Below the pieces are notes generated by a model. The model worked only from the letters and a program-made list of their open reading frames with translations, was not told the origin of the DNA and did no database searches. Below, piece by piece: positions 3,115 through 62,775 of a DNA stretch of 64,000 nt. The stretch's first letter is position 1. Each line of letters opens with the position of its first letter. This DNA comes from an uncultured Bacilli bacterium. GTDB lineage: Bacteria > Bacillota_I > Bacilli_A > RF39 > UBA660. The translations under genes and the position numbers were made by a program. The stretch covers positions 28,978 to 92,977 of the forward strand of contig CANQIL010000001.1 in the NCBI GenBank assembly GCA_947624045.1. Direction: 5' to 3'.

Positions 3115-4857
3115 TTACATTTTTTTTGGAACTTTTATACCTAAAATATCTAAAAGTAAAAGGTTTAAGTCATATACTATTTTGGTTAAAACAAGACGGC
3201 TTTCTTTTAGGGAGGTATCTTGTTCAGTTAGGATTTTGTTTTCGGCATAAAACTTGTTGTAGGTGGCAGTTAGGTTGTATAAAAACTCGCATATTTCATT
3301 TAAAGATTTGGTTTCTAAAGATTTATCGATAACGGTTGGTAGGGTTAAAATGTACATCGCTAGTTGCCTTTCTTCTTTGGTTGGGAGGGTGGTTATGTTT
3401 TGGTAGGTAGTTTGAGATTTGGTTAAAAGTGATTTCATTCTGATAGTTGAATATAAAAGGTAAGGGCCGGTTTTACCCTCTAGGTCGGCAAATTTTTCTT
3501 CTTCAAAAATGTAGTCGGTACTGCGGAAAGCTAGGAAGTCGGCATATTTTAAAGCGGCAATGGCGACATCTTTAGAGATTTCTGTACGTTCTTGGTCATC
3601 GGTGATGTCAGGGTTTAGACGTTTTAGGGTTTCTTCATTTATTAATTTAATTAGGTCTTTTAAAGGCATAATACCGCCATCTCTAGTTTTAAAAGGTTTA
3701 CCGTCTTTGCCATTCATAGTACCAAAGCCGATGAATTCTAGTTTGACACTATCGGGAACGATTTTAGAAAGACGAGCGGCACGGAAGACTTGTTCAAAGT
3801 GTAAGTTTTGGCGTAAGTCGACACAGTACCATATTTCATCAGGCGCAAATTCTTTTTGACGCTGTAGAATTGTGGCTAAGTCGGTAGTGGCATAAGATAG
3901 GGAGTTGTTTGATTTGATAAATAGTAAAGGTGGCATAGGAGCTTTGTCTTCGGTAGTGGCTACTTCAACTATAGTGGCATTGTCGCTTAGTTTTAAAAGA
4001 TTCTTTTGGGTGAAAATGTCTTTTAGTTCAGAAAGGTAGCTAACGGAATCACTTTCACCTAGCCATAGTTCAAAAGAAACATTTAAGTCATCATAAACTT
4101 TTTTGATAGCTTCTTTAGAAATATTAACTACTTTTTGCCATAGTTCGTAATAGCCTTTGTCGTGATTTTGAATTTTAAAAGTAATTTGACGAGCTTCTTC
4201 AAGATAGGCTTCGTCCTCTTTAGCTTTTAGGGAAGCGGTAGGATAGATTTCTTCTAAGTCGGCATTGGTAATTGGTAGAGAAATTTCACTATAATCGCCT
4301 TGGTAAGATTCATCAAAAAAGGCAAGATGTGGATAACGCTTTTTTATTTCTAATAAGACTAAACCTAGAGGGCGGCCATAGTCGCCTAGATGGGCATCGC
4401 CTAAGCAGTCATAACCTACTAATTTAGCTAGACGTTTTAGGGCTTCGCCTAGATTTGCGCTACGTAAGTGACCGACGTGTAAGGCTTTAGATACATTGGC
4501 GCCACCATAATCAATGATTATCTTTTTAGGCTCTTTTTTATCAATACAAGAAAAATGGTCATTATTAAATTCGTTTAGGACGGAAATTAAAAAGTCCGTT
4601 GAAAGGGTTAAGTTGATAAAGCCCGGAGGAGCAATGTTGATATTAGTAAAACGGCTATCAGTTTGTAGGACGTTTTTTATATCTTCGGCTATTAGCATAG
4701 GATTTTTATGATACGTTTTAGCTAGAGTTAGGGCGTTATTTATTTGATAGTCGCCTAAGTCTTTTCGATTAGACGGTAGTAAGATGACATTATCTTCATA
4801 GCCGGCTTCTAGGACTAGATTAGTTAAATCGGCATTTAATTTTTTTAATATACTCAT
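3115..4857 (-). CDS. argS: arginine--tRNA ligase
   Basis: 580 aa with class-I HIGH motif HVGHLRS. Overall ArgRS-like layout ending ...KKM. Confidence 0.95.
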   Translation of the reverse strand: MSILKKLNADLTNLVLEAGYEDNVILLPSNRKDLGDYQINNALTLAKTYHKNPMLIAEDIKNVLQTDSRFTNINIAPPGFINLTLSTDFLISVLNEFNNDHFSCIDKKEPKKIIIDYGGANVSKALHVGHLRSANLGEALKRLAKLVGYDCLGDAHLGDYGRPLGLVLLEIKKRYPHLAFFDESYQGDYSEISLPITNADLEEIYPTASLKAKEDEAYLEEARQITFKIQNHDKGYYELWQKVVNISKEAIKKVYDDLNVSFELWLGESDSVSYLSELKDIFTQKNLLKLSDNATIVEVATTEDKAPMPPLLFIKSNNSLSYATTDLATILQRQKEFAPDEIWYCVDLRQNLHFEQVFRAARLSKIVPDSVKLEFIGFGTMNGKDGKPFKTRDGGIMPLKDLIKLINEETLKRLNPDITDDQERTEISKDVAIAALKYADFLAFRSTDYIFEEEKFADLEGKTGPYLLYSTIRMKSLLTKSQTTYQNITTLPTKEERQLAMYILTLPTVIDKSLETKSLNEICEFLYNLTATYNKFYAENKILTEQDTSLKESRLVLTKIVYDLNLLLLDILGIKVPKKM

Positions 4858-28689: not shown

Positions 28690-29598
28690 TTAATTTTTAG
28701 TTTCTAAAGACATTATTTCAAGTAAACGATTTAAATCATTGGTGTTGACAAAGCTTATTTCTATTTTTTTGTTTTTGATTTTTACTTTGGTGCCTAGCTT
28801 TTCACATAATTCTTCTTCTAGATATTTGTATTCATTAGTTGGAGTGTGTTTGGTGATTTGATGAGTTCTTACATATTTTTCTTTGGATGTTGTTAGTTCT
28901 TCAAGAGCGTGAACGCTTAGGCCCTCATCTATAACTTTGGTTGCTAGTTGTTTTTGTTGCTCAACATCATCAAGTTTACTAAGAACGCGGGCGTGGCCCA
29001 TAGAAATAAGTTTTTGACCAACTTGGTCTTGAATTTCTTTTGGTAAAGTTAGTATGCCTAACATATTGGTAATGTGACTACGACTTTTACCTAGTCTTTT
29101 AGATAGTTCTTCTTGGGTTAGAGCTAGGGTTTCTTGAAGTTTTTTGTAGGCATTTGCTTCTTCGATAGCGTTTAGGTTTTCTCTTTGAAGATTTTCAAGT
29201 AAGGCAATTTCCATCATTTCGGTATCATTAAAGTCGCGCACAATGGCAGGTATTTCTTCTAGGCCGGCTAAAAGAGAAGCTTTAACACGACGTTCACCGG
29301 CTATTATTTCATAACCTTTGATACTTTTTTTGATGATAATTGGTTGGAAAACACCGTGTTCTTTTATTGAGGTTGCTAGTTCTTCTAGGGCTTGTTGGTC
29401 GAAGACTTTACGTGGTTGATATGGGTTTGCGCGTAGGTCTTTTAGTTTTACTTTGATTATGCCCTCTTTGGGTGTTTCGTTAATTATCTTTTCTTCTACT
29501 CGACTGTAGTCTAAAATTTCATTGTTAAATAGTTCTTCTAGGCCACGACCTAGAGCTCTTCTTTTTGGAGCGGTAGCGTTATTGTTAGTTGTTTCCAT
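28690..29598 (-). CDS. parB: chromosome partitioning protein ParB/Spo0J
   Basis: RRALGRGLEELF and the arginine patch IIAGERR. ParB-type HTH region GKSRSHITNMLGILTLP...GHAR. Confidence 0.93.
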   Translation of the reverse strand: METTNNNATAPKRRALGRGLEELFNNEILDYSRVEEKIINETPKEGIIKVKLKDLRANPYQPRKVFDQQALEELATSIKEHGVFQPIIIKKSIKGYEIIAGERRVKASLLAGLEEIPAIVRDFNDTEMMEIALLENLQRENLNAIEEANAYKKLQETLALTQEELSKRLGKSRSHITNMLGILTLPKEIQDQVGQKLISMGHARVLSKLDDVEQQKQLATKVIDEGLSVHALEELTTSKEKYVRTHQITKHTPTNEYKYLEEELCEKLGTKVKIKNKKIEISFVNTNDLNRLLEIMSLETKN

Positions 29599-30373
29599 TA
29601 CGAGAAATCACTTCCTTTGCTAGATTAATGTAGGCTTCTGAGCCTCTACTTTTGGGGTCATAAGCAACAATTGGCTCGCCGTGTGAGGGAGCTTCGGTTA
29701 ATCTGACTAAGCGGGGAATTATGGTATTGTAAACTTTTTCTTTGAAAAATTTTCTTATGTCATCGACTACTTCAAAGCCTAAGTTTGTTCTAGAATCAAG
29801 CATTGTTAAAAGGACACCCTCGATGTCTAGGGTTGGGTTTAAGTTCTTTTGAGCAAGCATTATTGTTTTTAAAAGTTGAGTTATTCCCTCTAGTGCGAAG
29901 AATTCACATTGAACAGGTATGATGACGGAATTAGCGGCAGTTAAGGCATTGGTAGTAATGATACCTAGTGATGGTGGGCAGTCTATTATGATATAGTCAA
30001 AGCTATCTTTTATGTCTTGCATTCTTATTTTTAATTGCTCACCTTTGTTGAAGTTGTTTTCTTGATGACTTTTTTCGACTAATTCGATGTCTAAACCGGC
30101 TAAGTTAATGGTAGCAGGAAGAACGTATAAATTTTTGTATTTTGTTTTAATCATTGCTTCTGAAATGTTACACTCCCCTATTAAGACATCATATATGCTT
30201 CTTTCTATGTCGCCTTTATTTATACCTACTCCGGTAGTGGTATTGCCTTGGGGGTCTAAATCAATTAATAAAACTTTTTTACCTAGTACGGCTAAGGAAG
30301 CTGATAAATTGATGCTTGTTGTAGTTTTGCCTACTCCACCTTTTTGATTTACTAATGCTATTACTTTTCCCAT
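29585..30373 (-). CDS. parA: chromosome partitioning ATPase ParA/Soj
   Basis: Deviant Walker A NQKGGVGKTTT. Overlaps parB by 14 nt. Confidence 0.95.
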   Translation of the reverse strand: MGKVIALVNQKGGVGKTTTSINLSASLAVLGKKVLLIDLDPQGNTTTGVGINKGDIERSIYDVLIGECNISEAMIKTKYKNLYVLPATINLAGLDIELVEKSHQENNFNKGEQLKIRMQDIKDSFDYIIIDCPPSLGIITTNALTAANSVIIPVQCEFFALEGITQLLKTIMLAQKNLNPTLDIEGVLLTMLDSRTNLGFEVVDDIRKFFKEKVYNTIIPRLVRLTEAPSHGEPIVAYDPKSRGSEAYINLAKEVISRNGNN

Positions 30374-30724: not shown

Positions 30725-31807
30725 GTGTTTTTAAAAGAGATGAGAGAAAAAAAGGAAAAGAGCATTTTTCAATATAAAAGAAATAAATTTTTGAAAAATA
30801 TTTTTAATAATATTGGGGAAATTTATGAAGATGATAAGAATATTACTTGTGTTGTAAAACAGGAATTGTTGGAAAAGACTAAGAAAAGGGATTTTTATAA
30901 ACTTAATTTGTATGGTATTAGTGATATTTTCTATAAGGAAATGAATTATTTTAAATTAAATAAAAACGTTCATTATATTTTTGAGGGTATTGTTTTTGAT
31001 AAGCCATTGATGATTTATTCACATTACTGCGATATTACTTTTAAGAATTGTGTTTTTAATAATGCTAATATAAAGATATTTTATGCCGATAAAATTACTT
31101 TTAGTGATAATAAATATTATTGTGATGATAAGGTAGTGCAAGATACTTTTTTGAAAACGAATATGACGGAAGTTGATGAGTTACTTTTTATAAAGGAAAA
31201 ATTTGAAAATGGGACTTGTAGTGAGAAAAAGAGTAATGGAACTTGGGAAGATTTGTTAGTTTTAAAAATGAGCGATAGTGAAGATAGTTCTAAAATGTTA
31301 GAGAAAGGACATTCATTTGAAAAAGGGAAAGAGGAAAATAAGCATTTTGGAATTGATGTTAAGGCTAAGAAAATTATTATAAAAGATTCTTTGGTAAATA
31401 CTGGAGGTAATTGTGATGTTACGGTAAAAGCAAAGGAAGTTGATATTGATAATTCTACTATTGTAGGGGGCAATATTTTTATAAAGTCTGATTATGTTAA
31501 AAATGATAATAGTGTAATTGAGGCTTTAAAAATTGTGAATGTTACTAATGATGAAAAAAATTGTGATTTAGAGAGTGAAAATTCTAGAATAAATGGGCAT
31601 TTTGTTATTTTAAATGGGTTGGCAAGACAAAATAATGATAATAAAAATAGTGTTGAGAGTGCTAAAAAGTTAAGTAAAAAAAGAATGGAACTTATAGGAA
31701 TGCTTGCTAAGATTAGAGATATGTGTAATAAAGATGTTGAGGAAAGAGTGCTTGAATTTAGGACTCAAGAAGAAAAGAAAAATATAAAAATGTTATTAAA
31801 AAAATAA
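30725..31807 (+). CDS. hypothetical protein (no TM segment or signal seen)
   Basis: 360-aa ORF with GTG start preceded by AGGAGGGG. Inserted between parA and noc on the opposite strand. No motif recognised. Confidence 0.55.
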   Translation: MFLKEMREKKEKSIFQYKRNKFLKNIFNNIGEIYEDDKNITCVVKQELLEKTKKRDFYKLNLYGISDIFYKEMNYFKLNKNVHYIFEGIVFDKPLMIYSHYCDITFKNCVFNNANIKIFYADKITFSDNKYYCDDKVVQDTFLKTNMTEVDELLFIKEKFENGTCSEKKSNGTWEDLLVLKMSDSEDSSKMLEKGHSFEKGKEENKHFGIDVKAKKIIIKDSLVNTGGNCDVTVKAKEVDIDNSTIVGGNIFIKSDYVKNDNSVIEALKIVNVTNDEKNCDLESENSRINGHFVILNGLARQNNDNKNSVESAKKLSKKRMELIGMLAKIRDMCNKDVEERVLEFRTQEEKKNIKMLLKK

Positions 31808-31819
31808 AGAACAAATAGG

Positions 31820-33205
31820 TTATTCGCCTGCTTGTTCTTTTTCTTCGCTTTCTGCTTGTGGTAATTGGTCTTTTTCAATTTTTATTATCATTTGATAAGA
31901 TTTATCAAAGTGCATTTCGTCGTAAGAAGCTTTGATACTGTGGTCGTTTAGGTCTTTGATTAAATCTTTTAATTTGGTTGTTGCTTGTTCTAGGGTGTAG
32001 GTTGTACTTTGCATATCATCAGTTACACTTTTTACAGATGTAAGTTGAGAGTTTTGAGAATTTATAGTTGGTATCATTGTTGGAATGTTTATGGCAGAAA
32101 GGTCTGGTGTTTTGAAGTAGTCTTCGGTTGATTCCATTTCTGTTGAATCGGTTTTTACTATTTTTTCGGCAGGTGTTATAAAATTAGTGTCAGTATCGCC
32201 TGTTGGTACTTTAGCATTGTTTAAGTTTAACATATTGTCTAAGTCGGCGGCATTTTCTGAGGTGTTATTTATATCCATAGAATTTTCTTTTACATTGTCA
32301 ATATCAACAGGGATAATTGATGAATCTAAGCCACCGGGTTGTTCAGTTTCATCGTCGTCATCGTCATCTTCAATTTCGCCATAATTGATAAATTTAGGAA
32401 TACCGGCAGGCATTTCTTCGCCGTCTGGTGGCGCAATTGTAACTTTGCCATAATTTGATGTGTCTTCTGGTAGGTCGGCAGTTGGCATTAATGGAGATGT
32501 ATTAACAAAGTTGTTAATTGAAGGTGTCTGCTCTGGTGCTTGGTCGGTTGGTGTTGAAATTTCAGACTCTGATGTTGACTCGTCTTGTTCTTTTGGATAT
32601 TCCTTTTTAATTTCTTCTTCTAATTGGCGAACACTCATTTTGGTATCAATAATTTGTTTTAACATATCCTTTTGTTTTTTGGCATCAGGTATGTTTAGTA
32701 AAGACCTAGCGTGGCGCTCAGATATTTGCTCTTTTAAAAGGGCTTCTTGAATTTCTTCTGGTAAAGATAGTAATCTTATTTTATTCGCAACGGCAGATTG
32801 ACTTTTGCCCATTGTTTTAGCTAGTTCTTCTTGGGTCATTTCATCTATTTCTAGTATCTTTTGGTAAGTTCTAGCTTCTTCGATAGCATTAAGATTTTTT
32901 CTTTGTAAATTTTCAAGAAGTGCTACTTTGGAGCTTTCTTTATCATCTAAATCTCTTATGATAGCAGGTATTTTAGTAAGGCCTGCTAAGGCAGAGGCTT
33001 TGTATCGTCTTTCACCGGCTATTATTTCATATTTGCCATTGACACTTCTTACTATTATAGGTTGAATTACACCGTGTTCTTTTATAGATACAGCTAGTTC
33101 TTTCAATGCTTTTTCATCAAAGACTTCTCGTGGTTGAAATCTATTTGGAATTATATCGTCTAAATGTAATAATACAACTTCATCTTTTTCTTTATCTTGA
33201 TTCAT
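31820..33205 (-). CDS. noc: Noc-like ParB-family nucleoid occlusion protein with a long low-complexity insertion
   Basis: NRFQPR and IIAGERR. Noc-type HTH signature GKSQSAVANKIRLL...SERHAR (compare parB SRSHITNMLGIL...GHAR). Sits next to rsmG as Bacillus noc does. 461 aa against about 280 expected. Confidence 0.8.
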   Translation of the reverse strand: MNQDKEKDEVVLLHLDDIIPNRFQPREVFDEKALKELAVSIKEHGVIQPIIVRSVNGKYEIIAGERRYKASALAGLTKIPAIIRDLDDKESSKVALLENLQRKNLNAIEEARTYQKILEIDEMTQEELAKTMGKSQSAVANKIRLLSLPEEIQEALLKEQISERHARSLLNIPDAKKQKDMLKQIIDTKMSVRQLEEEIKKEYPKEQDESTSESEISTPTDQAPEQTPSINNFVNTSPLMPTADLPEDTSNYGKVTIAPPDGEEMPAGIPKFINYGEIEDDDDDDETEQPGGLDSSIIPVDIDNVKENSMDINNTSENAADLDNMLNLNNAKVPTGDTDTNFITPAEKIVKTDSTEMESTEDYFKTPDLSAINIPTMIPTINSQNSQLTSVKSVTDDMQSTTYTLEQATTKLKDLIKDLNDHSIKASYDEMHFDKSYQMIIKIEKDQLPQAESEEKEQAGE

Positions 33206-39599: not shown

Positions 39600-39790
39600 T
39601 TTGTGGGATATTGTTGTTAGGGGAGTGTGGATAAATTTTTAGAAAAATATTTTATCCACAAGAAATAGTGGATAACTATTGAGATGAAATATGGGTAAAG
39701 AGGTGTTTTTCACAATTTCAACAGACTTGTGGAAAGACTTTTCAATAGATGTTAATAGAAAAGTTGTGGAAAATGTGGAAAACTAAGGAA
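39600..39790. promoter_or_regulatory. oriC: oriC DnaA-box cluster upstream of dnaA
   Basis: Perfect boxes TGTGGATAA (39626-39634) and TTATCCACA (39652-39660). One-mismatch boxes at 39667-39675, 39765-39773 and 39774-39782. Confidence 0.8.
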
Positions 39791-39935
39791 AAGCTTGTAG
39801 TATAAAGATTTAAGTTGTTGAAAAAATTGGGGATTAATTGTTGATAAAAATTTTTGTAAAAATTGGGTTTATTTTTTTGAAAAATTGGGTTATAGTAAAC
39901 GTAACTTGATTTTATTCTTGTGGGGAGATGGTAGA

Positions 39936-41324
39936 ATGAATGTCGATATTTTATGGTCTAAATTCTTAGATTCTATTAAAGATGACTTATCTTCACTATC
40001 TTTTTCTACGTGGTTTCAAGATACGAAACTTTATAGAATAGAAGATAATAATGCTTATATAGTTGTGCCAATGCCTATTCATAAAAAACATTTAATGGAT
40101 AATTATTCAGAATTAATAAATAATCGCTTAATTGAAATTACAGGTAATAGTTATGAGTTAGTCTTTATATTAAAAGAAGAAATAAGTGGTTTGGAGTTTG
40201 AAGAAGAACAAAAGGTTGAAGAAAATGTGAATGTACAAGATGTGGATAAACCGAAGATATATAATTCAACAAATCTAAAGAGAAAATATTTATTTGATAA
40301 TTTTATAGTCGGAAATAGTAATAAGTTTGCTCACGCGGCGGCGCTTTCGGTAGCGGAAAATCCGGGCAATATGTATAATCCTTTGTTTCTTTATGGAAAT
40401 AGTGGACTAGGGAAAACACATTTAATGCATGCGATAGGGAATTATATTGTGGATAATTCTAAGAAGCGAGTCTTATATGTAACAAGTGACCAGTTTATCC
40501 AAGATTTTATTGGTATTAATAAAAAAGATGAAAATGATACTAATTTCAATTATGTTGATTTTTTCAAAAATAAATATCGTAATATTGATGTGCTTTTAAT
40601 TGATGATATTCAGTTTTTAGGAGGAGCATCAAAGACCCAACAGGAGTTTTTCCATACCTTTAATACATTGTATAATGATAGTAAGCAGATAATTATTTCC
40701 TCTGACCGGTCGCCTGATGATTTGAAATTACTTGAAGACCGTTTGAGAACTAGGTTTTGTTGGGGATTAACGGTGAATATTTTTCCACCTGACTTTAATC
40801 TGAAAATGGAAATAATAAAAAAGAAGATTATTGCCGGTAACTTTGAAAAGGAAATTCCAGAAGATGTCATTGAGTATATTGCTTCTAATATAGGACCAGA
40901 TGTTAGGCAATTAGAGGGTTCTATAACAAGACTTATTGCTTATTCTACAATAATGGGGGGAGCTGATATTAACTTAGATTTGGCAATTGAAGCTCTAAAA
41001 GACTTTATCAGTAAAGGAATGGGTGAAAAAAATGACATTCAACGAATACAAAAAATTGTTTCTGAGTATTTTCAAATATCGGTTGAAGATATAAGAAGTA
41101 AAAAGCGAAGTTCAAATATTTCTTTCCCAAGACAGATTGCTATGTACTTATGTAGAGTAATAACAGGCGAATCTTTTCCTAAGATAGGAACAGAATTTGG
41201 GGGAAAGGACCATTCAACAGTAATGCACTCAGTGGAAAAAATTGAAACAGAAAGAAAAGTTAATAAAGACTTAAATAATATTATTGAAAAATTAAAAGAT
41301 GATATAGGCATTGTGCAAAAGTGA
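39936..41324 (+). CDS. dnaA: chromosomal replication initiator protein DnaA
   Basis: Walker A GNSGLGKTHL, sensor and box motifs, C-terminal DNA-binding KDHSTVMHS. Start at MNVDILW, with GGGGAG 8 nt upstream. Confidence 0.97.
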   Translation: MNVDILWSKFLDSIKDDLSSLSFSTWFQDTKLYRIEDNNAYIVVPMPIHKKHLMDNYSELINNRLIEITGNSYELVFILKEEISGLEFEEEQKVEENVNVQDVDKPKIYNSTNLKRKYLFDNFIVGNSNKFAHAAALSVAENPGNMYNPLFLYGNSGLGKTHLMHAIGNYIVDNSKKRVLYVTSDQFIQDFIGINKKDENDTNFNYVDFFKNKYRNIDVLLIDDIQFLGGASKTQQEFFHTFNTLYNDSKQIIISSDRSPDDLKLLEDRLRTRFCWGLTVNIFPPDFNLKMEIIKKKIIAGNFEKEIPEDVIEYIASNIGPDVRQLEGSITRLIAYSTIMGGADINLDLAIEALKDFISKGMGEKNDIQRIQKIVSEYFQISVEDIRSKKRSSNISFPRQIAMYLCRVITGESFPKIGTEFGGKDHSTVMHSVEKIETERKVNKDLNNIIEKLKDDIGIVQK

Positions 41325-41448: not shown

Positions 41449-42579
41449 ATGAAATTAACTATAAAAAAAGAATTATTATTGGAGGCTTTAAATAAAGTTT
41501 CAAAAGCGATATCTACTAAAAATCTTATCCCCGTTTTAGCAGGAATTAAATTTGAAGTAAAAAAGAAAAAGCTAACTTTAACGGCTAGTGATAATGATAT
41601 AACGATACAAACGGTAATAGAAGCTGTTAATGAAGAAGATTTTAAAATTGAATCAGAGGGTAGCATTATAATACAAGGTAAGTATATTTTGGATATAGTT
41701 AGAAAATTACCTGATGAGTTTATTAATATTGAAGTAGTTGATGATTTAAAAATACTTATTTATACAAAAGAGGATAGAGAATTTAATTTGAATGGAATTA
41801 GTGAAAGTGAATATCCTAATATTTCTTTAGAGGAAAGTAAAAAGAAAGTTGATGTTAAAGCAGGAGTTTTTAAAAATATTGTTAATCAAACAGCTTTTGC
41901 TTCTTCTAATGAGGAAAGTAAACCAGTCTTAATGGGTATTAATTTCAATATTGCCGGAAATGTCCTTGAATGTAATTCAACAGATTCTTATCGTTTAGCT
42001 AGAAAAGTTGTTAAATTAGATAAGGAAAGCGAAGATAGTTATAATATTATTATTCCTAGTCATAATATTTTAGAGTTTGTAAAAATATTGGGTGATGATG
42101 AAGAAATCGTTGAGTTACATATATTTAGTAATAAGATTTTATTTAAAGTGGGAAATTTAAAGTTTGAGTCACGCTTAATAAATGGAACTTATCCTAATAC
42201 ATCTAATTTATTACCTGATGAATCTTTAATGACTGTTAATACGAATTTAAATGACTTTTATAATGTTATAGATAGAGTTAGTATTTTAACTAGTGATAAA
42301 GAGAAGAATATTGTTACACTTGAAACGGAGGGAAATGCTTTAATATTAAGAAGTAGTTCTTTGGAAGTTGGTAGAGTAGAAGAAAAAATGCTTGTTAATA
42401 AAGATAGTGAAGAAGATATAAAGATTTCCTTTAGTGCTAAATATATGATGGAAGCTTTAAAAAGCTTTTCCACAGAAACTGTGGATATTCATTTTGTCGG
42501 AGAGATTAAGCCAATACTAATAAAATCTAAGGAAGATGATACTTTAACACAACTAGTGTTACCAATTAGAACTTATTAA
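41449..42579 (+). CDS. dnaN: DNA polymerase III beta sliding clamp
   Basis: 376 aa. MKLTIKKELLLEALNKVSKAIS... and ...LVLPIRTY are typical of DnaN. Position after dnaA. Confidence 0.95.
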   Translation: MKLTIKKELLLEALNKVSKAISTKNLIPVLAGIKFEVKKKKLTLTASDNDITIQTVIEAVNEEDFKIESEGSIIIQGKYILDIVRKLPDEFINIEVVDDLKILIYTKEDREFNLNGISESEYPNISLEESKKKVDVKAGVFKNIVNQTAFASSNEESKPVLMGINFNIAGNVLECNSTDSYRLARKVVKLDKESEDSYNIIIPSHNILEFVKILGDDEEIVELHIFSNKILFKVGNLKFESRLINGTYPNTSNLLPDESLMTVNTNLNDFYNVIDRVSILTSDKEKNIVTLETEGNALILRSSSLEVGRVEEKMLVNKDSEEDIKISFSAKYMMEALKSFSTETVDIHFVGEIKPILIKSKEDDTLTQLVLPIRTY

Positions 42580-42742
42580 TTATAAGAATTAAAAGAAGAA
42601 TTTTCTTAAAAATATTAAAAAAGTTCTTTTTTTTATGCAAATTTTTAAATTTATTACTAATAATATATATGAAAAGGAAAATTTTATTCATTTTTCGACA
42701 AAATAAGACAAAATTCGACAAAAGAAAGTGCTAATATGTAAG

Positions 42743-42771
42743 TGGAAAACGCGGGTACTAGACGTTTTCCA
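42743..42771. repeat. inverted repeat in the comK-like leader
   Basis: TGGAAAACG, 11 nt, CGTTTTCCA (perfect 9-bp arms). Preceded by the direct repeats TTCGACAAAA twice. Confidence 0.35.
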
Positions 42772-42787
42772 TATAGGGGGAATTAAA

Positions 42788-43240
42788 ATGAAATATGAAG
42801 TAAATTATGGTACACTGGCAATAATGCCAAATAATACTGATGACAGCTTAGTTTATGAAGATGAACAAAGATATCTTGTTGATGGGACACCTTTTGAAAT
42901 AATGGAAGATAGTTGCCGTTATTTTGGAAGTACTTATGAGGGAAGAAAAGAAAGTGCTAAGGCTATTTTAGGTGCTGAATATAAAGTACCGATAATTGTT
43001 GAGGATACTAATAATTTGATAGTCTTTCCAACAACATCACCATCAGCAAATGACTGTATTTGGATATCACTAAATAGGATAAGAAAATTTGAGCCTATTG
43101 ATAATCAACATACAAAAATTATTTTTGATAATGAAATGGAAATTATCGTTCCATCAACTTATAGAAGTATACAAAATCAAGTTTCTAGAGCAACAAGATT
43201 AGATTACATAATAAGAAAAAGAAAAAATCCACAAGTTTAA
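42788..43240 (+). CDS. comK: ComK-family competence transcription factor homolog
   Basis: YEVNYGTLAIMP, SCRYFGSTYEGRK, KVPIIV...IVFPTTS and NQV.R motifs collinear with remembered B. subtilis ComK. GGGGGA lies upstream of this ATG. Confidence 0.8.
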   Translation: MKYEVNYGTLAIMPNNTDDSLVYEDEQRYLVDGTPFEIMEDSCRYFGSTYEGRKESAKAILGAEYKVPIIVEDTNNLIVFPTTSPSANDCIWISLNRIRKFEPIDNQHTKIIFDNEMEIIVPSTYRSIQNQVSRATRLDYIIRKRKNPQV

Positions 43241-48955: not shown

Positions 48956-49235
48956 TTAAAGTAAAAAATTAACTTAGTTATAAAGGGTAAATCGATAGTG
49001 GTTTACTCTTTTTTTGTAAAATAGTTTTGTGTTTTATGTAAATTTTTGTCTGTGGAAAAAATATTTTTTGAGTAGAATAGTTTTTTCTTTTGAATTAATG
49101 TGTTAGAAATTTGTAGATATTTTATGTGAGTGTAATAGTAACAGGTATTTTGATAATTAGTTTAAATAGTTATATTACTATCACTGTAAAAATTGTGTCT
49201 GTGGATATTTATTTTATAAAAATATATAGTAAATT

Positions 49236-49249
49236 ATTTCCCGGGAAAT
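49236..49249. promoter_or_regulatory. Noc-binding site (NBS), perfect ATTTCCCGGGAAAT
   Basis: Exact match to the B. subtilis NBS palindrome. Embedded in a 24-bp perfect palindrome AAATTATTTCCCGGGAAATAATTT. Confidence 0.75.
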
Positions 49250-49294
49250 AATTTAGTGAAAATGAAGATAAAATATTATAAGCAAAAAATATAA

Positions 49295-49310
49295 TGTTCC
49301 ACGTGAAACA
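49295..49310. promoter_or_regulatory. parS: parS centromere site, perfect TGTTCCACGTGAAACA
   Basis: Exact 16/16 match to the Firmicute parS consensus TGTTNCACGTGAAACA. Confidence 0.85.
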
Positions 49311-49591
49311 ACAATTCAAATTTGAAATGTGTTTTTATTATTTTTAGTTAATTATTTAAAGTCAAAAAATTGTGGTAATTGAAATAAAAATTATCTTATT
49401 TTTTAATAATTTAATATAATGTCATTATCAATATGTCGAAGTGTGCTTTTTAATCAATTGTTAAAGATAGACGAAGAAAGTATTTAGATATCTATTTATT
49501 ATTTTGATATTTATTAAAATTAATAGATATTTTGCTTAATGATGTAAAATTGTGTCTGTGGATATTTTATTTTATATAACTATAGTAAATT

Positions 49592-49605
49592 ATTTCCCGG
49601 TAAAT
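49592..49605. promoter_or_regulatory. NBS-like site with one mismatch (ATTTCCCGGTAAAT)
   Basis: 13/14 match to the NBS. Same flanks as the other copies. Confidence 0.55.
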
Positions 49606-49646
49606 AATTTGCTGAAATAAAGATAAAATATTATAAGAAAATGAAA

Positions 49647-49662
49647 TGTTTCACGTGGAACA
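49647..49662. promoter_or_regulatory. parS: parS site, perfect (TGTTTCACGTGGAACA, opposite orientation)
   Basis: Reverse complement of TGTTCCACGTGAAACA. Confidence 0.85.
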
Positions 49663-49698
49663 TAGTAGATATATGGTAAAACTAACATAAGAAAAAAT

Positions 49699-49712
49699 AT
49701 TTCCCGGGAAAT
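49699..49712. promoter_or_regulatory. NBS, perfect ATTTCCCGGGAAAT
   Basis: Exact match. Confidence 0.75.
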
Positions 49713-49754
49713 AATTTATTGGAAAAGAAGATAAAATATTATAAGAAAATGAAA

Positions 49755-49770
49755 TGTTTCACGTGGAACA
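49755..49770. promoter_or_regulatory. parS: parS site, perfect (TGTTTCACGTGGAACA)
   Basis: Exact match in reverse orientation. Confidence 0.85.
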
Positions 49771-49806
49771 TAGTAGATATATGGTAAAACTAACATAAGA
49801 AAAAAT

Positions 49807-49820
49807 ATTTCCCGGGAAAT
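49807..49820. promoter_or_regulatory. NBS, perfect ATTTCCCGGGAAAT
   Basis: Exact match. Confidence 0.75.
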
Positions 49821-49862
49821 AATTTATTGGAAAAGAAGATAAAATATTATAAGCAAATATAA

Positions 49863-49878
49863 TGTTCCACGTGAAACA
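49863..49878. promoter_or_regulatory. parS: parS site, perfect TGTTCCACGTGAAACA
   Basis: Exact match. Confidence 0.85.
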
Positions 49879-50315
49879 TTAAATTAGTATTTACTTTTTT
49901 TATTCTTGTCTTTGACAGTTGTTGAATGAAATAACTCTCTAAACTATTAAAAAATAAGGAAAAAATGAGAGCTTTTTTTCTCAAAAAAGTTGCGTACCTT
50001 TCTACTTATTTAATCACTAGAAAAATTTTTTTAGAAATTAGTTAAAAGCTTGTTTTTAAGCCAAATTCTTGAGGTACATTCATTTTTATACAGTTTATGT
50101 CTTACAAATGTTACTCCTTTAGATAGTATTATTATAGGATTCAAATTTAAAATCTTCTATTATCTTTTATTAATCATTTATAGTCATTTGTAGAATCTAT
50201 TTTTAGTTTTAATAATTTAATTATCTCATGACAGGTTGTTTTTTAGAACAAGTGTCAAAGATAGGTGGATATTTTATTTTATAAAAATTTATTGAAATAT
50301 TATAAGAAAATAAAA

Positions 50316-50331
50316 TGTTTCACGTGGAACA
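50316..50331. promoter_or_regulatory. parS: parS site, perfect (TGTTTCACGTGGAACA)
   Basis: Exact match in reverse orientation. Confidence 0.85.
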
Positions 50332-50375
50332 TAGTAGATATATGGTAAAACTAATAACTAAACATAAGAAAAAAT

Positions 50376-50389
50376 ATTTCCCGGGAAAT
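50376..50389. promoter_or_regulatory. NBS, perfect ATTTCCCGGGAAAT
   Basis: Exact match. Confidence 0.75.
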
Positions 50390-50429
50390 AATTTACTAAA
50401 ATAAAAATAAAAATTATAAGAAAATACAA

Positions 50430-50445
50430 TGTTCCACGTGAAACA
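50430..50445. promoter_or_regulatory. parS: parS site, perfect TGTTCCACGTGAAACA
   Basis: Exact match, about 50 nt upstream of the SRP RNA. Confidence 0.85.
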
Positions 50446-50489
50446 TTAAATTAGTATTTACTTTTTTTTTATAATAATATAAAATATGT

Positions 50490-50566
50490 TTGTGCAATGA
50501 AAGTGATTGAAACAGGTCAGGATTGGAAAATAGCAGCCTTAAGGTCCTCCTTTCATGTGCACTTTT
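50490..50566 (+). ncRNA. ffs: small (4.5S-type) signal recognition particle RNA
   Basis: Domain IV core CAGGUCAGGAUUGGAAAAUAGCAGCCUUAAGG parallels E. coli CAGGUCAGGUCCGGAAGGAAGCAGCCAAGG (GGAA tetraloop, AGCAGCC). Closing helix GUGCAAUGAAAG / CUUUCAUGUGCAC, then a T run. Confidence 0.8.
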
Positions 50567-50587
50567 TATTTTGGAGTTGAAAAAATT

Positions 50588-51031
50588 ATGAAAAATGAGT
50601 TTTTTGATTTGGCTTTTGCTGAAGCTGAAAAAGCTTTTAACATAAATGAAGTCCCTATTGGTGCTGTTATTGTTAAAGATGGAAAAATTATTGCTAAAGG
50701 TCATAATATTAAGGAAAATCAACGAAATGTTATTTGCCATGCTGAGATGTTAGCTATTAATGAAGCTTCAAAAGTTTTAAATAATTGGCGTTTAAGCGAC
50801 TGCGATATTTATGTAACTTTGGATCCTTGTCCGATGTGTGCTAGTGCAATTAAGCAAGCTAGAATTAAAAACGTATATTCTGCTTTAGAAAATTTGGATA
50901 AATCTAATAGTGAGATTGTTAATAGAATTTTTGAAAATTCTGATATAAATTCGGCTACTAATTTTATTACTAATTTATCTGTGGAAAAAGCTAAAAATTT
51001 AATGCAGTCTTTTTTTAAAAATAGACGATAA
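50588..51031 (+). CDS. tadA: tRNA-specific adenosine deaminase
   Basis: Zinc motifs CHAEMLAI and PCPMC. Start at MKNEFF (GGAG upstream), because the ORF-track start at 50555 lies inside the SRP RNA. Confidence 0.9.
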   Translation: MKNEFFDLAFAEAEKAFNINEVPIGAVIVKDGKIIAKGHNIKENQRNVICHAEMLAINEASKVLNNWRLSDCDIYVTLDPCPMCASAIKQARIKNVYSALENLDKSNSEIVNRIFENSDINSATNFITNLSVEKAKNLMQSFFKNRR

Positions 51032-51081: not shown

Positions 51082-52779
51082 ATGTATCAAGCTTTGTATA
51101 GAAAGTATCGTCCAACTGATTTTAATTCGGTTGTAGGTCAGGATAGTATTATAAGAACTTTAAAAAATTCGATTATTAATAAAACCTTTACCCATGCATA
51201 TATGTTTTTTGGTCCTAGGGGTACTGGAAAAACGACTATTTCTAAAATTTTTGCTCGTAGTATTAATTGCTTGGAGCCAGTGGATGGTGTTGCTTGTGGA
51301 AAGTGTAAAAATTGTCTAGAATCTTTTAAAAATTCTTGTGTGGATATTATTGAAATTGATGCTGCGTCAAATAATGGTGTTGATGAGATTAGGGAACTTA
51401 GAAGTAAGGTTTCTTTAGTACCTGCGGAATTAAAATATAAAGTTTATATTATTGATGAAGTTCATATGTTATCAATTGGTGCTTTTAATGCCTTGTTGAA
51501 AACTTTAGAGGAACCGCCTGAGCATGTAGTTTTTATTTTAGCAACTACTGACCCACAGAAAGTTCCGGAGACTATTATTTCTAGATGTCAATGTTTTTCT
51601 TTTAAGCGAATTTCTACTGATATGATTGTGGATAGGTTAAAATTTATATGTTCAGAGGAAAATATTTCTATTGATGATGATGTTTTAACTGAAATTGCTA
51701 CATCTTCGGAAGGTGGAATGCGTGATGCTTTAGGTTCTTTGGACAAATTATCTTCTTTTTCAAATTCTAAAATTACTTTAGATGATTTTTATGAGTTAAA
51801 TGGGATGATTACTAAAGGTGAATTAAAGAATTTTTATGATAATTTATTTAGTTATAATATTTCAGAAGTTTTAAAATTAATTTCTGATTATAATAGTGGA
51901 GGTAAAAATTTAATTCAAATATTTACACAAATTATGTTTTCAGTGCGAAATATGATTGTGGATTTTTATATTTCAGGTGTGCAAAGTTCTTATAATGTTG
52001 ATTTAATGCAAGATTTTGTAAATTTAATAAACGAAAATATGTTCGATATAAAAAGAAGCGGAAATCCTAAAATATTTCTGGAAATGTTGGTTATTAAGTT
52101 TATAAAGGAGCATGAATCTTCAAAGTCAACGGATGTTATTGTTAATAAAGAAGAAGTAGTCGTTCAAAGTAATAATGTGGAGAAAGAAGTAAAAAAGGTA
52201 AAAAAAACTGTGGAAATTACGGAAGATAAACCGGTAGAAATTATTTCCCGGGAAATAATTGATGAGAAAAATATTTCCCGGGAAATAAAATTGGATACTT
52301 TGCCAGTTAAAAATATTCAAGAAATTATGGATGCTAGGGTTAATAATATTATGGCTTTGGCTGATAAGAATATTTTAAAGTTGGAAATGCAGAAATTTCA
52401 GTTACTAAATGATTATACGTTTGATCAAAATATAGGATATTTAGTTTGTAGTTTGTTAGATGCTAAGATAAGAGCTGCTAGTGATAAGGGTATTATAATT
52501 AGTTATGAATATGATTCTAATGTTAAGCAAAATTTAATTAATTTAGATAAATTGGTGGAAGTTTATAACAAAATTACAAAATCTAATAAAAGTTTGGCTA
52601 TTATTAGTGATGAAAAATGGGAAATTGAAAAAAATAAGTATATAAAGGCTTTAAAAGAGGGAAAAAAATATCAAGTTATGGAAGAACCTGAAGAAGTCTT
52701 GGAAGAAATTGAAAATAATGATATAATATCAAGTAGTAGTGCAGTTGAGCTTTTTGGCGATATTGTCGAAGTTGAATAG
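51082..52779 (+). CDS. dnaX: DNA polymerase III subunit gamma/tau
   Basis: MYQALYRKYRP, Walker A GPRGTGKTT, zinc module CGKCKNC, and the SRC motif. GGAGGTG lies 9 nt upstream. Confidence 0.95.
   Translation: MYQALYRKYRPTDFNSVVGQDSIIRTLKNSIINKTFTHAYMFFGPRGTGKTTISKIFARSINCLEPVDGVACGKCKNCLESFKNSCVDIIEIDAASNNGVDEIRELRSKVSLVPAELKYKVYIIDEVHMLSIGAFNALLKTLEEPPEHVVFILATTDPQKVPETIISRCQCFSFKRISTDMIVDRLKFICSEENISIDDDVLTEIATSSEGGMRDALGSLDKLSSFSNSKITLDDFYELNGMITKGELKNFYDNLFSYNISEVLKLISDYNSGGKNLIQIFTQIMFSVRNMIVDFYISGVQSSYNVDLMQDFVNLINENMFDIKRSGNPKIFLEMLVIKFIKEHESSKSTDVIVNKEEVVVQSNNVEKEVKKVKKTVEITEDKPVEIISREIIDEKNISREIKLDTLPVKNIQEIMDARVNNIMALADKNILKLEMQKFQLLNDYTFDQNIGYLVCSLLDAKIRAASDKGIIISYEYDSNVKQNLINLDKLVEVYNKITKSNKSLAIISDEKWEIEKNKYIKALKEGKKYQVMEEPEEVLEEIENNDIISSSSAVELFGDIVEVE
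52243..52256. promoter_or_regulatory. NBS, perfect ATTTCCCGGGAAAT, inside the dnaX coding sequence
   Basis: Exact match read in frame as I-S-R-E-I. The flanks extend the palindrome (AAATTATTTCCCGGGAAATAATT). Confidence 0.7.
52273..52286. promoter_or_regulatory. NBS, perfect ATTTCCCGGGAAAT, inside the dnaX coding sequence
   Basis: Exact match 30 bp after the first, again read as I-S-R-E-I. Confidence 0.7.
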
Positions 52780-62539: not shown

Positions 62540-62775
62540 CATAAATGTTGTGAAGAAGAGTTTTATAATTAAATGGCTATTGAAGAGAACTCTTGGATGG
62601 TGTGAAAGAGTATAGTTAAATTATAAAATATGGCTTTGGAGCAGTTATATCGATAGGTAGGTATAAACGTTAATAGGCGTTAACTATTAAGAAGTGTATA
62701 ATACAAGCTATTATAAAATAAGGTGGTACCGCGATTAATCGTCCTTATGTTATGGTAGCTTTTTTATTTTAAGGA
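62540..62775 (+). promoter_or_regulatory. T-box riboswitch leader (methionine specifier)
   Basis: Conserved T-box GGTGGTACCGCG at 62722-62733. Stem I with an AGAGA-type bulge and a candidate AUG specifier at 62573-62575. Downstream helix plus TTTTTT before metG. Confidence 0.8.

Follow-up and report, generated by a model that had tools for sequence, protein, structure and literature searches.

The 64-kb stretch analysed here (the window; 64,000 nucleotides of contig CANQIL010000001.1 from an uncultured Bacilli bacterium) contains, between gyrA and the signal recognition particle (SRP) RNA gene, an array in which parS, the consensus site of the partition protein ParB, is interleaved with the Noc-binding site (NBS), the palindrome recognised by the ParB paralogue Noc. 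The arrangement is conserved across a clade and is not unique to one genome. We give a probability of roughly two in three to the reading that this gap is the chromosomal centromere, organised as a loading platform for two clamp-forming proteins, ParB and a Noc-derived paralogue, with the paralogue serving as an origin-bound adaptor. A composite ParB/Noc loading platform had been proposed in an initial annotation of this DNA; it is supported by conservation of the locus and by the specificity residues of the two proteins, with binding and spreading predicted from the sequence.

The gap between the gyrA stop (48955) and the beginning of the SRP RNA gene (50481) measures 1.5 kb. Scanning the window with the parS consensus TGTTNCACGTGAAACA returned six exact matches, all within the gap, against 0.04 expected by chance in shuffled sequence. 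Three are in the + orientation of the single asymmetric base (49295..49310, TGTTCCACGTGAAACA; 49863..49878; 50430..50445) and three in the - orientation (49647..49662, 49755..49770 and 50316..50331), giving a density of six parS in 1.15 kb. The sole further parS-like match at up to two mismatches in the 64 kb is a two-mismatch site at 42312, in dnaN. The NBS palindrome ATTTCCCGGGAAAT occurs in the window as six exact and one single-mismatch copies, with 0.42 expected at up to two mismatches in shuffled sequence. Four exact copies (49236..49249, 49699..49712, 49807..49820 and 50376..50389) and the single-mismatch copy (49592..49605, ATTTCCCGGTAAAT) lie in the gap. The first of these extends to a perfect 22-bp palindrome, AATTATTTCCCGGGAAATAATT (49232-49253), and the 16-bp NBS form TATTTCCCGGGAAATA is found in full at array sites. 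Apart from two NBS inside dnaX, an exact-motif scan of the 64 kb found neither motif outside the gap. The scan agrees with the initial annotation, which had listed six exact parS, three per orientation, five gap NBS, four of them perfect, and the two dnaX NBS as the only others.

Part of the array, 49587..49879, is a tandem repeat of a 108-bp NBS-parS module (2.7 copies, 93% matches). The centres of neighbouring NBS and parS are 60, 56, 51, 57, 51, 57, 59 and 55 bp apart; the range of 55-60 bp given originally holds for six of the eight distances, the other two being 51 bp. The array is origin-proximal as claimed, and its distance from dnaA, put at about 9.5 kb, measures 9.35 kb from array start to dnaA start codon. 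A 54-bp TRF period hinted that NBS and parS units might be diverged copies of one 54-bp repeat. This was rejected, as the flank identity of the units is 0.393 within a locus and 0.385 between loci.

Both presumptive cognate proteins are encoded in the window, as first reported. The parB gene (28690..29598, - strand) encodes a 302-aa protein with ParB_N, HTH_ParB and ParB_C domains, and its start is overlapped by soj/parA (29585..30373, - strand, 262 aa). ParB carries the cytidine triphosphate (CTP)-binding motifs GERR and ENLQR and also NPYQPR, and, where four residues decide between parS and NBS preference, has R, M, T and G, with R and G at the equivalents of residues 173 and 201. Its N-terminal LGRGL (residues 16-20) fits the published ParA-binding motif of ParB, (L/F/I)G[KR]G(L/F/I) (PMC12704722); no motif of this type is present in the Noc-derived paralogue. 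The locus therefore combines what is expected of a parS centromere: consensus sites, a CTP-motif ParB with a parS-type helix-turn-helix (HTH) and a ParA-binding motif, soj, and a position 9.4 kb away from both the DnaA-box cluster and the start of dnaA, the gene at which strand bias switches. Binding of parS by ParB is a well-supported prediction.

The Noc-derived ParB paralogue (31820..33205, - strand, 461 aa) adjoins rsmG and has a Noc-type HTH and a C-terminal dimerisation domain. Its HTH, GKSQSAVANKIRLLSLP...ISERHAR, gives the specificity residues Q, K, S and R, and it keeps the motifs FQPR, GERR and ENLQR, the last two CTP-binding. Q173 together with R201 switches specificity to NBS, one lysine at 179 or 184 suffices as the permissive residue for NBS preference, and Caulobacter ParB is fully reprogrammed by the change from RTAG to QKKR (Jalal et al., PMC7383237). 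The paralogue has the equivalents of Q173, K179 and R201. Among its 120 listed homologues (425-533 aa), 119 could be typed at these positions: 108 are QKSR, six QKAR, three QKGR and two QKTR. The best solved-structure matches of the paralogue are Noc (7nfu, 7ng0 and 7ol9, with E-values of 4e-63 to 7e-57); ParB structures follow at 1e-51 and weaker, and the gene is in the canonical noc position, in the order rsmG-noc-(insert)-soj-parB. The insert is a 360-aa open reading frame (ORF; 30725-31807, + strand) with no Pfam or NCBIfam match. It looks like a strain-specific insertion, because noc and soj are directly adjacent in the close relative L122. NBS binding by the paralogue is, like parS binding by ParB, well supported by inference. 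The assignment of both proteins as cognate to the array sites, made in the initial annotation, is supported by the published specificity residues that each carries.

The paralogue labelled "Noc-like" departs from a canonical Noc in having no membrane helix and a long disordered linker. Its alignment to the Noc structures begins at Noc residue 20-23, and 19 acidic or polar residues (MNQDKEKDEVVLLHLDDII) precede PNRFQPR, compared with 39 in B. subtilis Noc. The segment absent from the paralogue, about 20 N-terminal residues, is where the membrane-targeting helix of Noc sits. This 10-residue amphipathic helix was predicted in all Noc homologues examined, and NocNΔ10 is non-functional (PMC4331003); the helix is required for Noc function (bioRxiv 10.1101/2021.02.11.430593; PMC4331003). 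A search for this motif matched 118 of the 120 listed homologues, and in every one of these 16-19 residues come before it. In 16 of 16 loci holding both noc and the gap, 14-24 residues precede it, the protein is 326-514 aa long and the array is present. The N-terminal membrane-targeting helix was found neither in the paralogue nor in these 118 homologues or 16 syntenic loci.

Between the HTH and the C-terminal dimerisation domain, the paralogue has a linker of about 200 aa (residues ~205-400). AlphaFold2 predicts it to be disordered, with a predicted local distance difference test (pLDDT) score of 34-60, compared with 70-85 in the N-terminal and HTH domains and 77-87 in most of the C-terminal domain. 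On this basis, the idea that the linker contains a folded domain was rejected. Linker length is about 40-230 aa across the Noc-derived proteins of the clade, and the linker holds invariant short motifs: FVNxxPLxPTAxLP, SNYGKVTIAPPEGE, KFINYGE, ADLDxLLN, FITPAEKIVKTD and DYFKTPDLS.

To determine how widely the arrangement occurs, one genome per species from 185,579 prokaryotic species was scanned with the pattern ATTTCCCGGGAAAT-N30-60-TGTTNCACGTGNAACA. At least 120 stretches carry the NBS-parS module, and the 120 listed are the basis of the counts that follow. All are metagenome-assembled genomes (MAGs) of the uncultured gut "Bacilli" type, labelled uncultured Bacilli, Erysipelotrichaceae, Tenericutes/Mollicutes, 'Mycoplasma sp.', 'Clostridium sp. 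CAG:417' or Candidatus Onthousia, the last filed by NCBI under 'Bacilli incertae sedis', with a few evidently mis-binned names. Homologues of gyrA and/or tadA/dnaX were detected by tblastn with the window proteins in 118 of the 120 stretches (GyrA 37-89% identical), and 459 of the 461 exact parS lie in gyrA/tadA/dnaX intergenic gaps or between these genes and the stretch end. The array layout thus recurs at the gyrA-tadA interval in more than 100 species, and the module is not dispersed irrespective of the origin, the outcome that the initial annotation had named as telling against its proposal. The composite pattern had no match among the viral contigs searched, and the array had no similarity to any of 72,556 plasmids; with one conserved locus in addition, a dispersed repeat or mobile element was rejected. 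Arrays in the listed stretches hold 2-19 sites each. In distant species the spacers are not alignable, while the extended cores AAWTATTTCCCGGGAAATAWTT and ATGTTYCACGTGRAACAT are kept, and NBS-parS pairs recur across species with no spacer similarity. A search for a third motif between NBS and parS by k-mer enrichment gave only SRP RNA words, degenerate NBS or parS variants and lineage-specific spacer words.

Several MAGs labelled Bacteroidaceae, Lachnospiraceae, Agathobacter or Muribaculaceae (L048, L097, L110, L029, L039 and others in our numbering) carry the Bacilli-type locus, with GyrA 63-73% identical to that of the window where gyrA is present, which points to mis-binned or mislabelled records. 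Arrays are often at contig ends (many of L002-L121, e.g., L093/L098, L033/L068 and L016/L052), and in three MAGs the array is split over two contigs, one with gyrA and the other with tadA. Assemblies appear to break recurrently at the repeat array, and true array lengths are probably underestimated. One metagenome contig in ENA, ERZ27249363 (NODE_108), is identical to window positions 40555-61031.

An independent set of loci was chosen by DnaN homology alone (55-86% identical) from metagenome contigs and assemblies. With 10-kb flanks, these 21-kb loci span noc to dnaX and total 1.02 Mb. Exact parS are confined to the gyrA-tadA-dnaX gaps. NBS are found in the same gaps, inside dnaX and, in four loci, at the mnmG-mnmE and mnmE-jag junctions. 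Over the origin-proximal sequence covered, they thus form strong clusters: at the array, in dnaX and at a small number of junctions close to oriC. The ratio of exact to one-mismatch to two-mismatch sites is 115:23:14 for parS and 103:24:6 for NBS. Each exact site has 42 single-mismatch neighbours and neutral decay would favour mismatched copies, yet exact sites exceed one-mismatch sites by about 5:1, which shows that both motifs are under purifying selection. Site number and order vary between close relatives, so there is turnover of the arrays but the sites themselves persist. NBS density in the origin region is about 100 per Mb, equal to that of parS (103 vs 115 per 1.02 Mb). The junction sites belong to one sub-lineage, with exact NBS at 4594 and 5996 in L167, 4442 and 5973 in L176, 4637 in L177, and 4441 and 5973 in L178 (locus coordinates). 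In that sub-lineage, Noc sites flank oriC on both sides.

The two NBS inside the dnaX coding sequence of the window are exact and lie at 52243..52256, encoding EIISREII, and at 52273..52286, encoding NISREIK, both in the variable linker of DnaX. In about 20 other species, dnaX carries an exact NBS at a matching relative position, 0.63-0.71 of protein length in most. Among 24 listed dnaX NBS, in which the window's two sites are counted twice, 22 are read in the frame giving IISREI and two in the frame giving NYFPGNN, and the surrounding peptide is not conserved. The use of two frames at one relative position, together with the unconserved peptide, indicates that it is the DNA site and not the peptide that is conserved, and points to selection acting on the DNA.

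Site geometry was analysed in the pattern-selected set. Adjacent sites alternate between NBS and parS in 405 of 586 pairs, compared with 308 ± 10 in shuffles, a count to which tandem duplication of the two-site unit contributes. Centre-to-centre NBS-parS distances peak at about 24, 35-38, 45-49, 57-58, 67-70 and 78-80 bp, and their periodogram has its maximum at 10.6-11 bp (R = 0.29, n = 322). After collapse to 186 spacer clusters, R was 0.24, and 0 of 3000 jittered controls were as high. Under other clustering thresholds the p-value was 0.0005-0.02, only for distances up to 76 bp, and adjacent parS-parS distances did not show the ~11-bp period. Rotational phasing of NBS with parS at about 11 bp is suggestive.

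In the mechanism that we infer from these observations, the six parS would nucleate ParB dimers, which with CTP would close into sliding clamps, leave parS and build up on nearby DNA. There they would engage Soj/ParA and, by analogy with B. subtilis, probably SMC for origin segregation. The interleaved NBS and the two dnaX NBS 1.8 kb away would nucleate the Noc-derived CTP clamp on the same stretch of DNA, and the partition complex, 9 kb from oriC, would hold two ParB-family proteins. The paralogue of this clade appears to have lost the membrane-tethering amphipathic helix, and it has instead a long linker, predicted to be disordered, with conserved short motifs. Because it is without the only known Noc route to the membrane and has a motif-rich disordered linker, it would most likely be an origin- or centromere-bound adaptor showing docking motifs to a partner, and not a genome-wide nucleoid-occlusion factor.

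Several observations weigh against this mechanism. Site binding by both proteins is predicted from sequence, and the sequence covered is origin-proximal; a B. subtilis-like frequency of about one NBS per 60 kb would leave the rest of the window empty anyway. Interleaved, tightly bound dimers could block each other's sliding, a poor fit to simple co-spreading. The ~11-bp phasing is not significant in the DnaN-selected set (28 clusters, p = 0.21). The paralogue scores 286.4 bits on the NCBIfam nucleoid occlusion protein model TIGR04285, below the 315-bit cut-off; of the 255 profile positions only 2-209 are covered, since the C-terminal domain is set apart by the linker. Lastly, the array is not indispensable at its locus: the metagenome contig Ga0247611_10000679 (L186) has identical synteny with a gyrA-tadA gap of 305 bp, and a motif scan found no parS within two mismatches anywhere in its 21 kb. 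Its dnaX retains a degenerate NBS (ATTTCCCAAGAAAT), and this lineage has either lost the centromere or relocated it.

The main rival explanation keeps classical nucleoid occlusion and takes the array as a locally dense patch of sites: NBS would be spread over most of the chromosome, as they are in B. subtilis and S. aureus, the protein would be tethered to the membrane through another segment, for example a linker motif, and the array would be parS and some NBS co-amplified by tandem duplication. NBS, unlike parS, do occur away from the array in some species, in dnaX and at the pth-rsmI, mnmG-mnmE and mnmE-jag junctions; the 108-bp module, at 93% identity, is a recent tandem duplication, so the alternation partly follows from unit copying; and 64 kb is too short to exclude one NBS per 60 kb elsewhere. 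However, NBS-parS pairs are found in species with dissimilar spacers, so that the pairing is more than a single inherited duplication. B. subtilis has about 70 NBS in 4.2 Mb, or ~17 per Mb, well short of the density here, which equals that of parS. The membrane-targeting helix is also missing from every homologue inspected, and its deletion in NocNΔ10 abolishes function (PMC4331003). Weakened by the missing helix and by the NBS density, this explanation seems to us unlikely.

The Noc-derived protein at NBS around oriC might instead, together with ParB/Soj, mainly regulate DnaA and initiation. S. aureus Noc restrains initiation, and small chromatin immunoprecipitation (ChIP) peaks flank dnaA (PMC5540599). 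Array regions have 8 times the density of perfect DnaA boxes seen in their flanks (0.36 vs 0.05 per kb across the 120 listed loci), one-mismatch boxes are found in a repeated 27-mer directly upstream of two NBS of the window, and NBS occur on the other side of oriC in some relatives. Against this, the perfect boxes number 31 and come from only 20 of the 120 loci, about 17% of arrays; none in the array of this window is perfect, the array lies 9 kb away from the DnaA-box cluster at dnaA, and coupling of Noc to DnaA is not known to have a mechanism even in S. aureus. We consider such a role improbable. Strict interleaving could also suggest a boundary or insulator, in which NBS-bound paralogue dimers act as roadblocks that confine ParB clamps, or the reverse, and so shape the size of the partition complex. 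ParB-family clamps are halted by tightly bound proteins in vitro, and the excess of alternating pairs fits such an arrangement. Confinement would need flanking sites and not alternating ones, however, ParB-family dimers occupy nucleation sites only transiently once CTP-bound, and the NBS in dnaX and near mnmE flank no parS, all of which makes an insulator very improbable.

The two-clamp loading platform therefore remains our preferred reading, and we tentatively extend it, as a possibility rather than an expectation: the Noc of this large clade of uncultured gut Bacilli with small genomes, anchor-less, linker-bearing, with its NBS among the parS and possibly phased with them, may be a second centromere protein and not a nucleoid-occlusion factor, and the two-clamp centromere may couple the origin region to a partner. 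As part of the same tentative proposal, that partner would serve to anchor the origin, control replication or act in division. Noc could have been repurposed to reach this state, which would then be derived; alternatively, an intermediate in the neofunctionalisation of ParB to Noc could have survived, with the new sites still at the centromere.

The longest internal ORF of the gap is 47 aa, in agreement with the initial statement that it has no ORF of 60 aa or more; a 108-aa antisense ORF (50414-50740), judged spurious, merely overlaps its end. SRP RNA alone reaches the Rfam gathering score in an Rfam scan of the gap, and promoter-like sites in it are no more frequent than in shuffles. A hidden gene or RNA was rejected on these grounds. 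The SRP RNA gene (50481..50575, + strand) forms the right border, 36 bp downstream of the end of the last parS. That parS ends 12 bp upstream of a promoter-like TTTACT-N17-TAAAAT, which would drive the SRP RNA gene, and ParB loading there could affect SRP RNA transcription. The called start of tadA (50555) overlaps the SRP RNA 3' end; a likelier start is the ATG at 50589, which follows a GGAG.

To the left of the origin the gene order is parB, soj, the 360-aa ORF on the opposite strand, the noc paralogue, rsmG, mnmG, mnmE, jag, yidC and rnpA; to the right it is dnaA (39885-41324, + strand), dnaN, a ComK-family gene, recF, gyrB, gyrA, the gap, SRP RNA, tadA, dnaX, ybaB and recR. The strand bias of genes flips at dnaA. 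A DnaA-box cluster upstream of dnaA (39626..39847; two perfect and four one-mismatch boxes) is presumed to be oriC, 9.4 kb from the array. The gap was rejected as part of oriC, since the cluster is at dnaA and the gap has just three one-mismatch boxes. The repeated 27-mer AAAATTGTGTCTGTGGATATTTATTTT (AAAATTGTGTCTGTGGATATTT..), which contains a one-mismatch DnaA box, lies just upstream of the first NBS (49189..49215, + strand), with a second copy (49546-49572) upstream of the second NBS and weaker copies near 49040 and 50255. It also holds a promoter-like TGGATA-N16/17-TATAGT directed into the following NBS. The ComK-family gene (42728-43240, + strand; Pfam E = 3e-43) sits between dnaN and recF, a placement kept in many related loci; in B. 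subtilis, yaaA occupies that position. A T-box leader at the right end of the window (62541-62749, + strand; Rfam 111.6 bits) is unrelated to the array.

The locus resembles the Spo0J/Soj ParABS system of B. subtilis in its identical 16-bp parS consensus, origin-proximal position, CTP-motif ParB with a ParA-binding N-terminus, and adjacent soj. In B. subtilis, parS are single sites dispersed over the origin-proximal region, whereas here all those seen crowd together within 1-2 kb of intergenic DNA, as a single array whose locus is conserved, with none in parB. With the Noc-NBS occlusion systems of B. subtilis and S. aureus it shares the identical 14/16-bp NBS, the position of noc beside rsmG and soj-parB, and a paralogue whose Q, K and R residues, CTP motifs and best structural-sequence match are those of Noc. 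It differs from them in having no N-terminal amphipathic helix, in the disordered linker before the C-terminal domain, and in NBS that cluster with parS near oriC instead of being spread over the origin-proximal half to two-thirds of the chromosome. The sopC centromere of F consists of 12 tandem repeats of 43 bp bound by the ParB-family SopB. As in sopC, the units here are head-to-tail with an inverted-repeat ParB-family site, in arrays that expand and contract, but this array is part of a chromosome, its units vary irregularly from one species to another, and two paralogues each have their own site type in it. Caulobacter, Corynebacterium glutamicum, Myxococcus and Streptomyces likewise have several parS within a few to tens of kb near oriC that form one complex. 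The present array is denser and belongs to a Firmicute lineage, and we know of none among those chromosomes that interleaves the sites of a second ParB paralogue. An analogy may also be drawn with RacA and its ram sites in sporulating B. subtilis, where a second site-specific DNA binder with origin-concentrated sites acts alongside Spo0J/Soj; RacA, however, is unrelated to ParB, its sites extend over hundreds of kb and its partner is DivIVA. Origin-proximal parS clusters and Noc-NBS systems are each already known. Our literature search found no account of conserved parS/NBS interleaving at one locus in more than 100 species, of intragenic NBS in dnaX or of a Noc lineage without the membrane helix.

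ParB and Noc are a textbook example of a duplicated DNA-binding protein that acquired a new site and a new job. To our knowledge, functional work on Noc rests entirely on B. subtilis and S. aureus, with dispersed sites and an essential N-terminal helix. The clade described here is a natural variant in which a single conserved locus has kept the sites of both paralogues next to each other and Noc has no such helix. It raises the questions of whether one track can carry two CTP clamps, whether these interact, and what Noc did before membrane tethering or does in its stead, and a 1.2-kb DNA fragment and two small proteins make these directly testable. With many matching stretches ending beside it, the array may be a frequent assembly breakpoint, and it would show where the centromere lies in a large group of gut bacteria that are uncultured.

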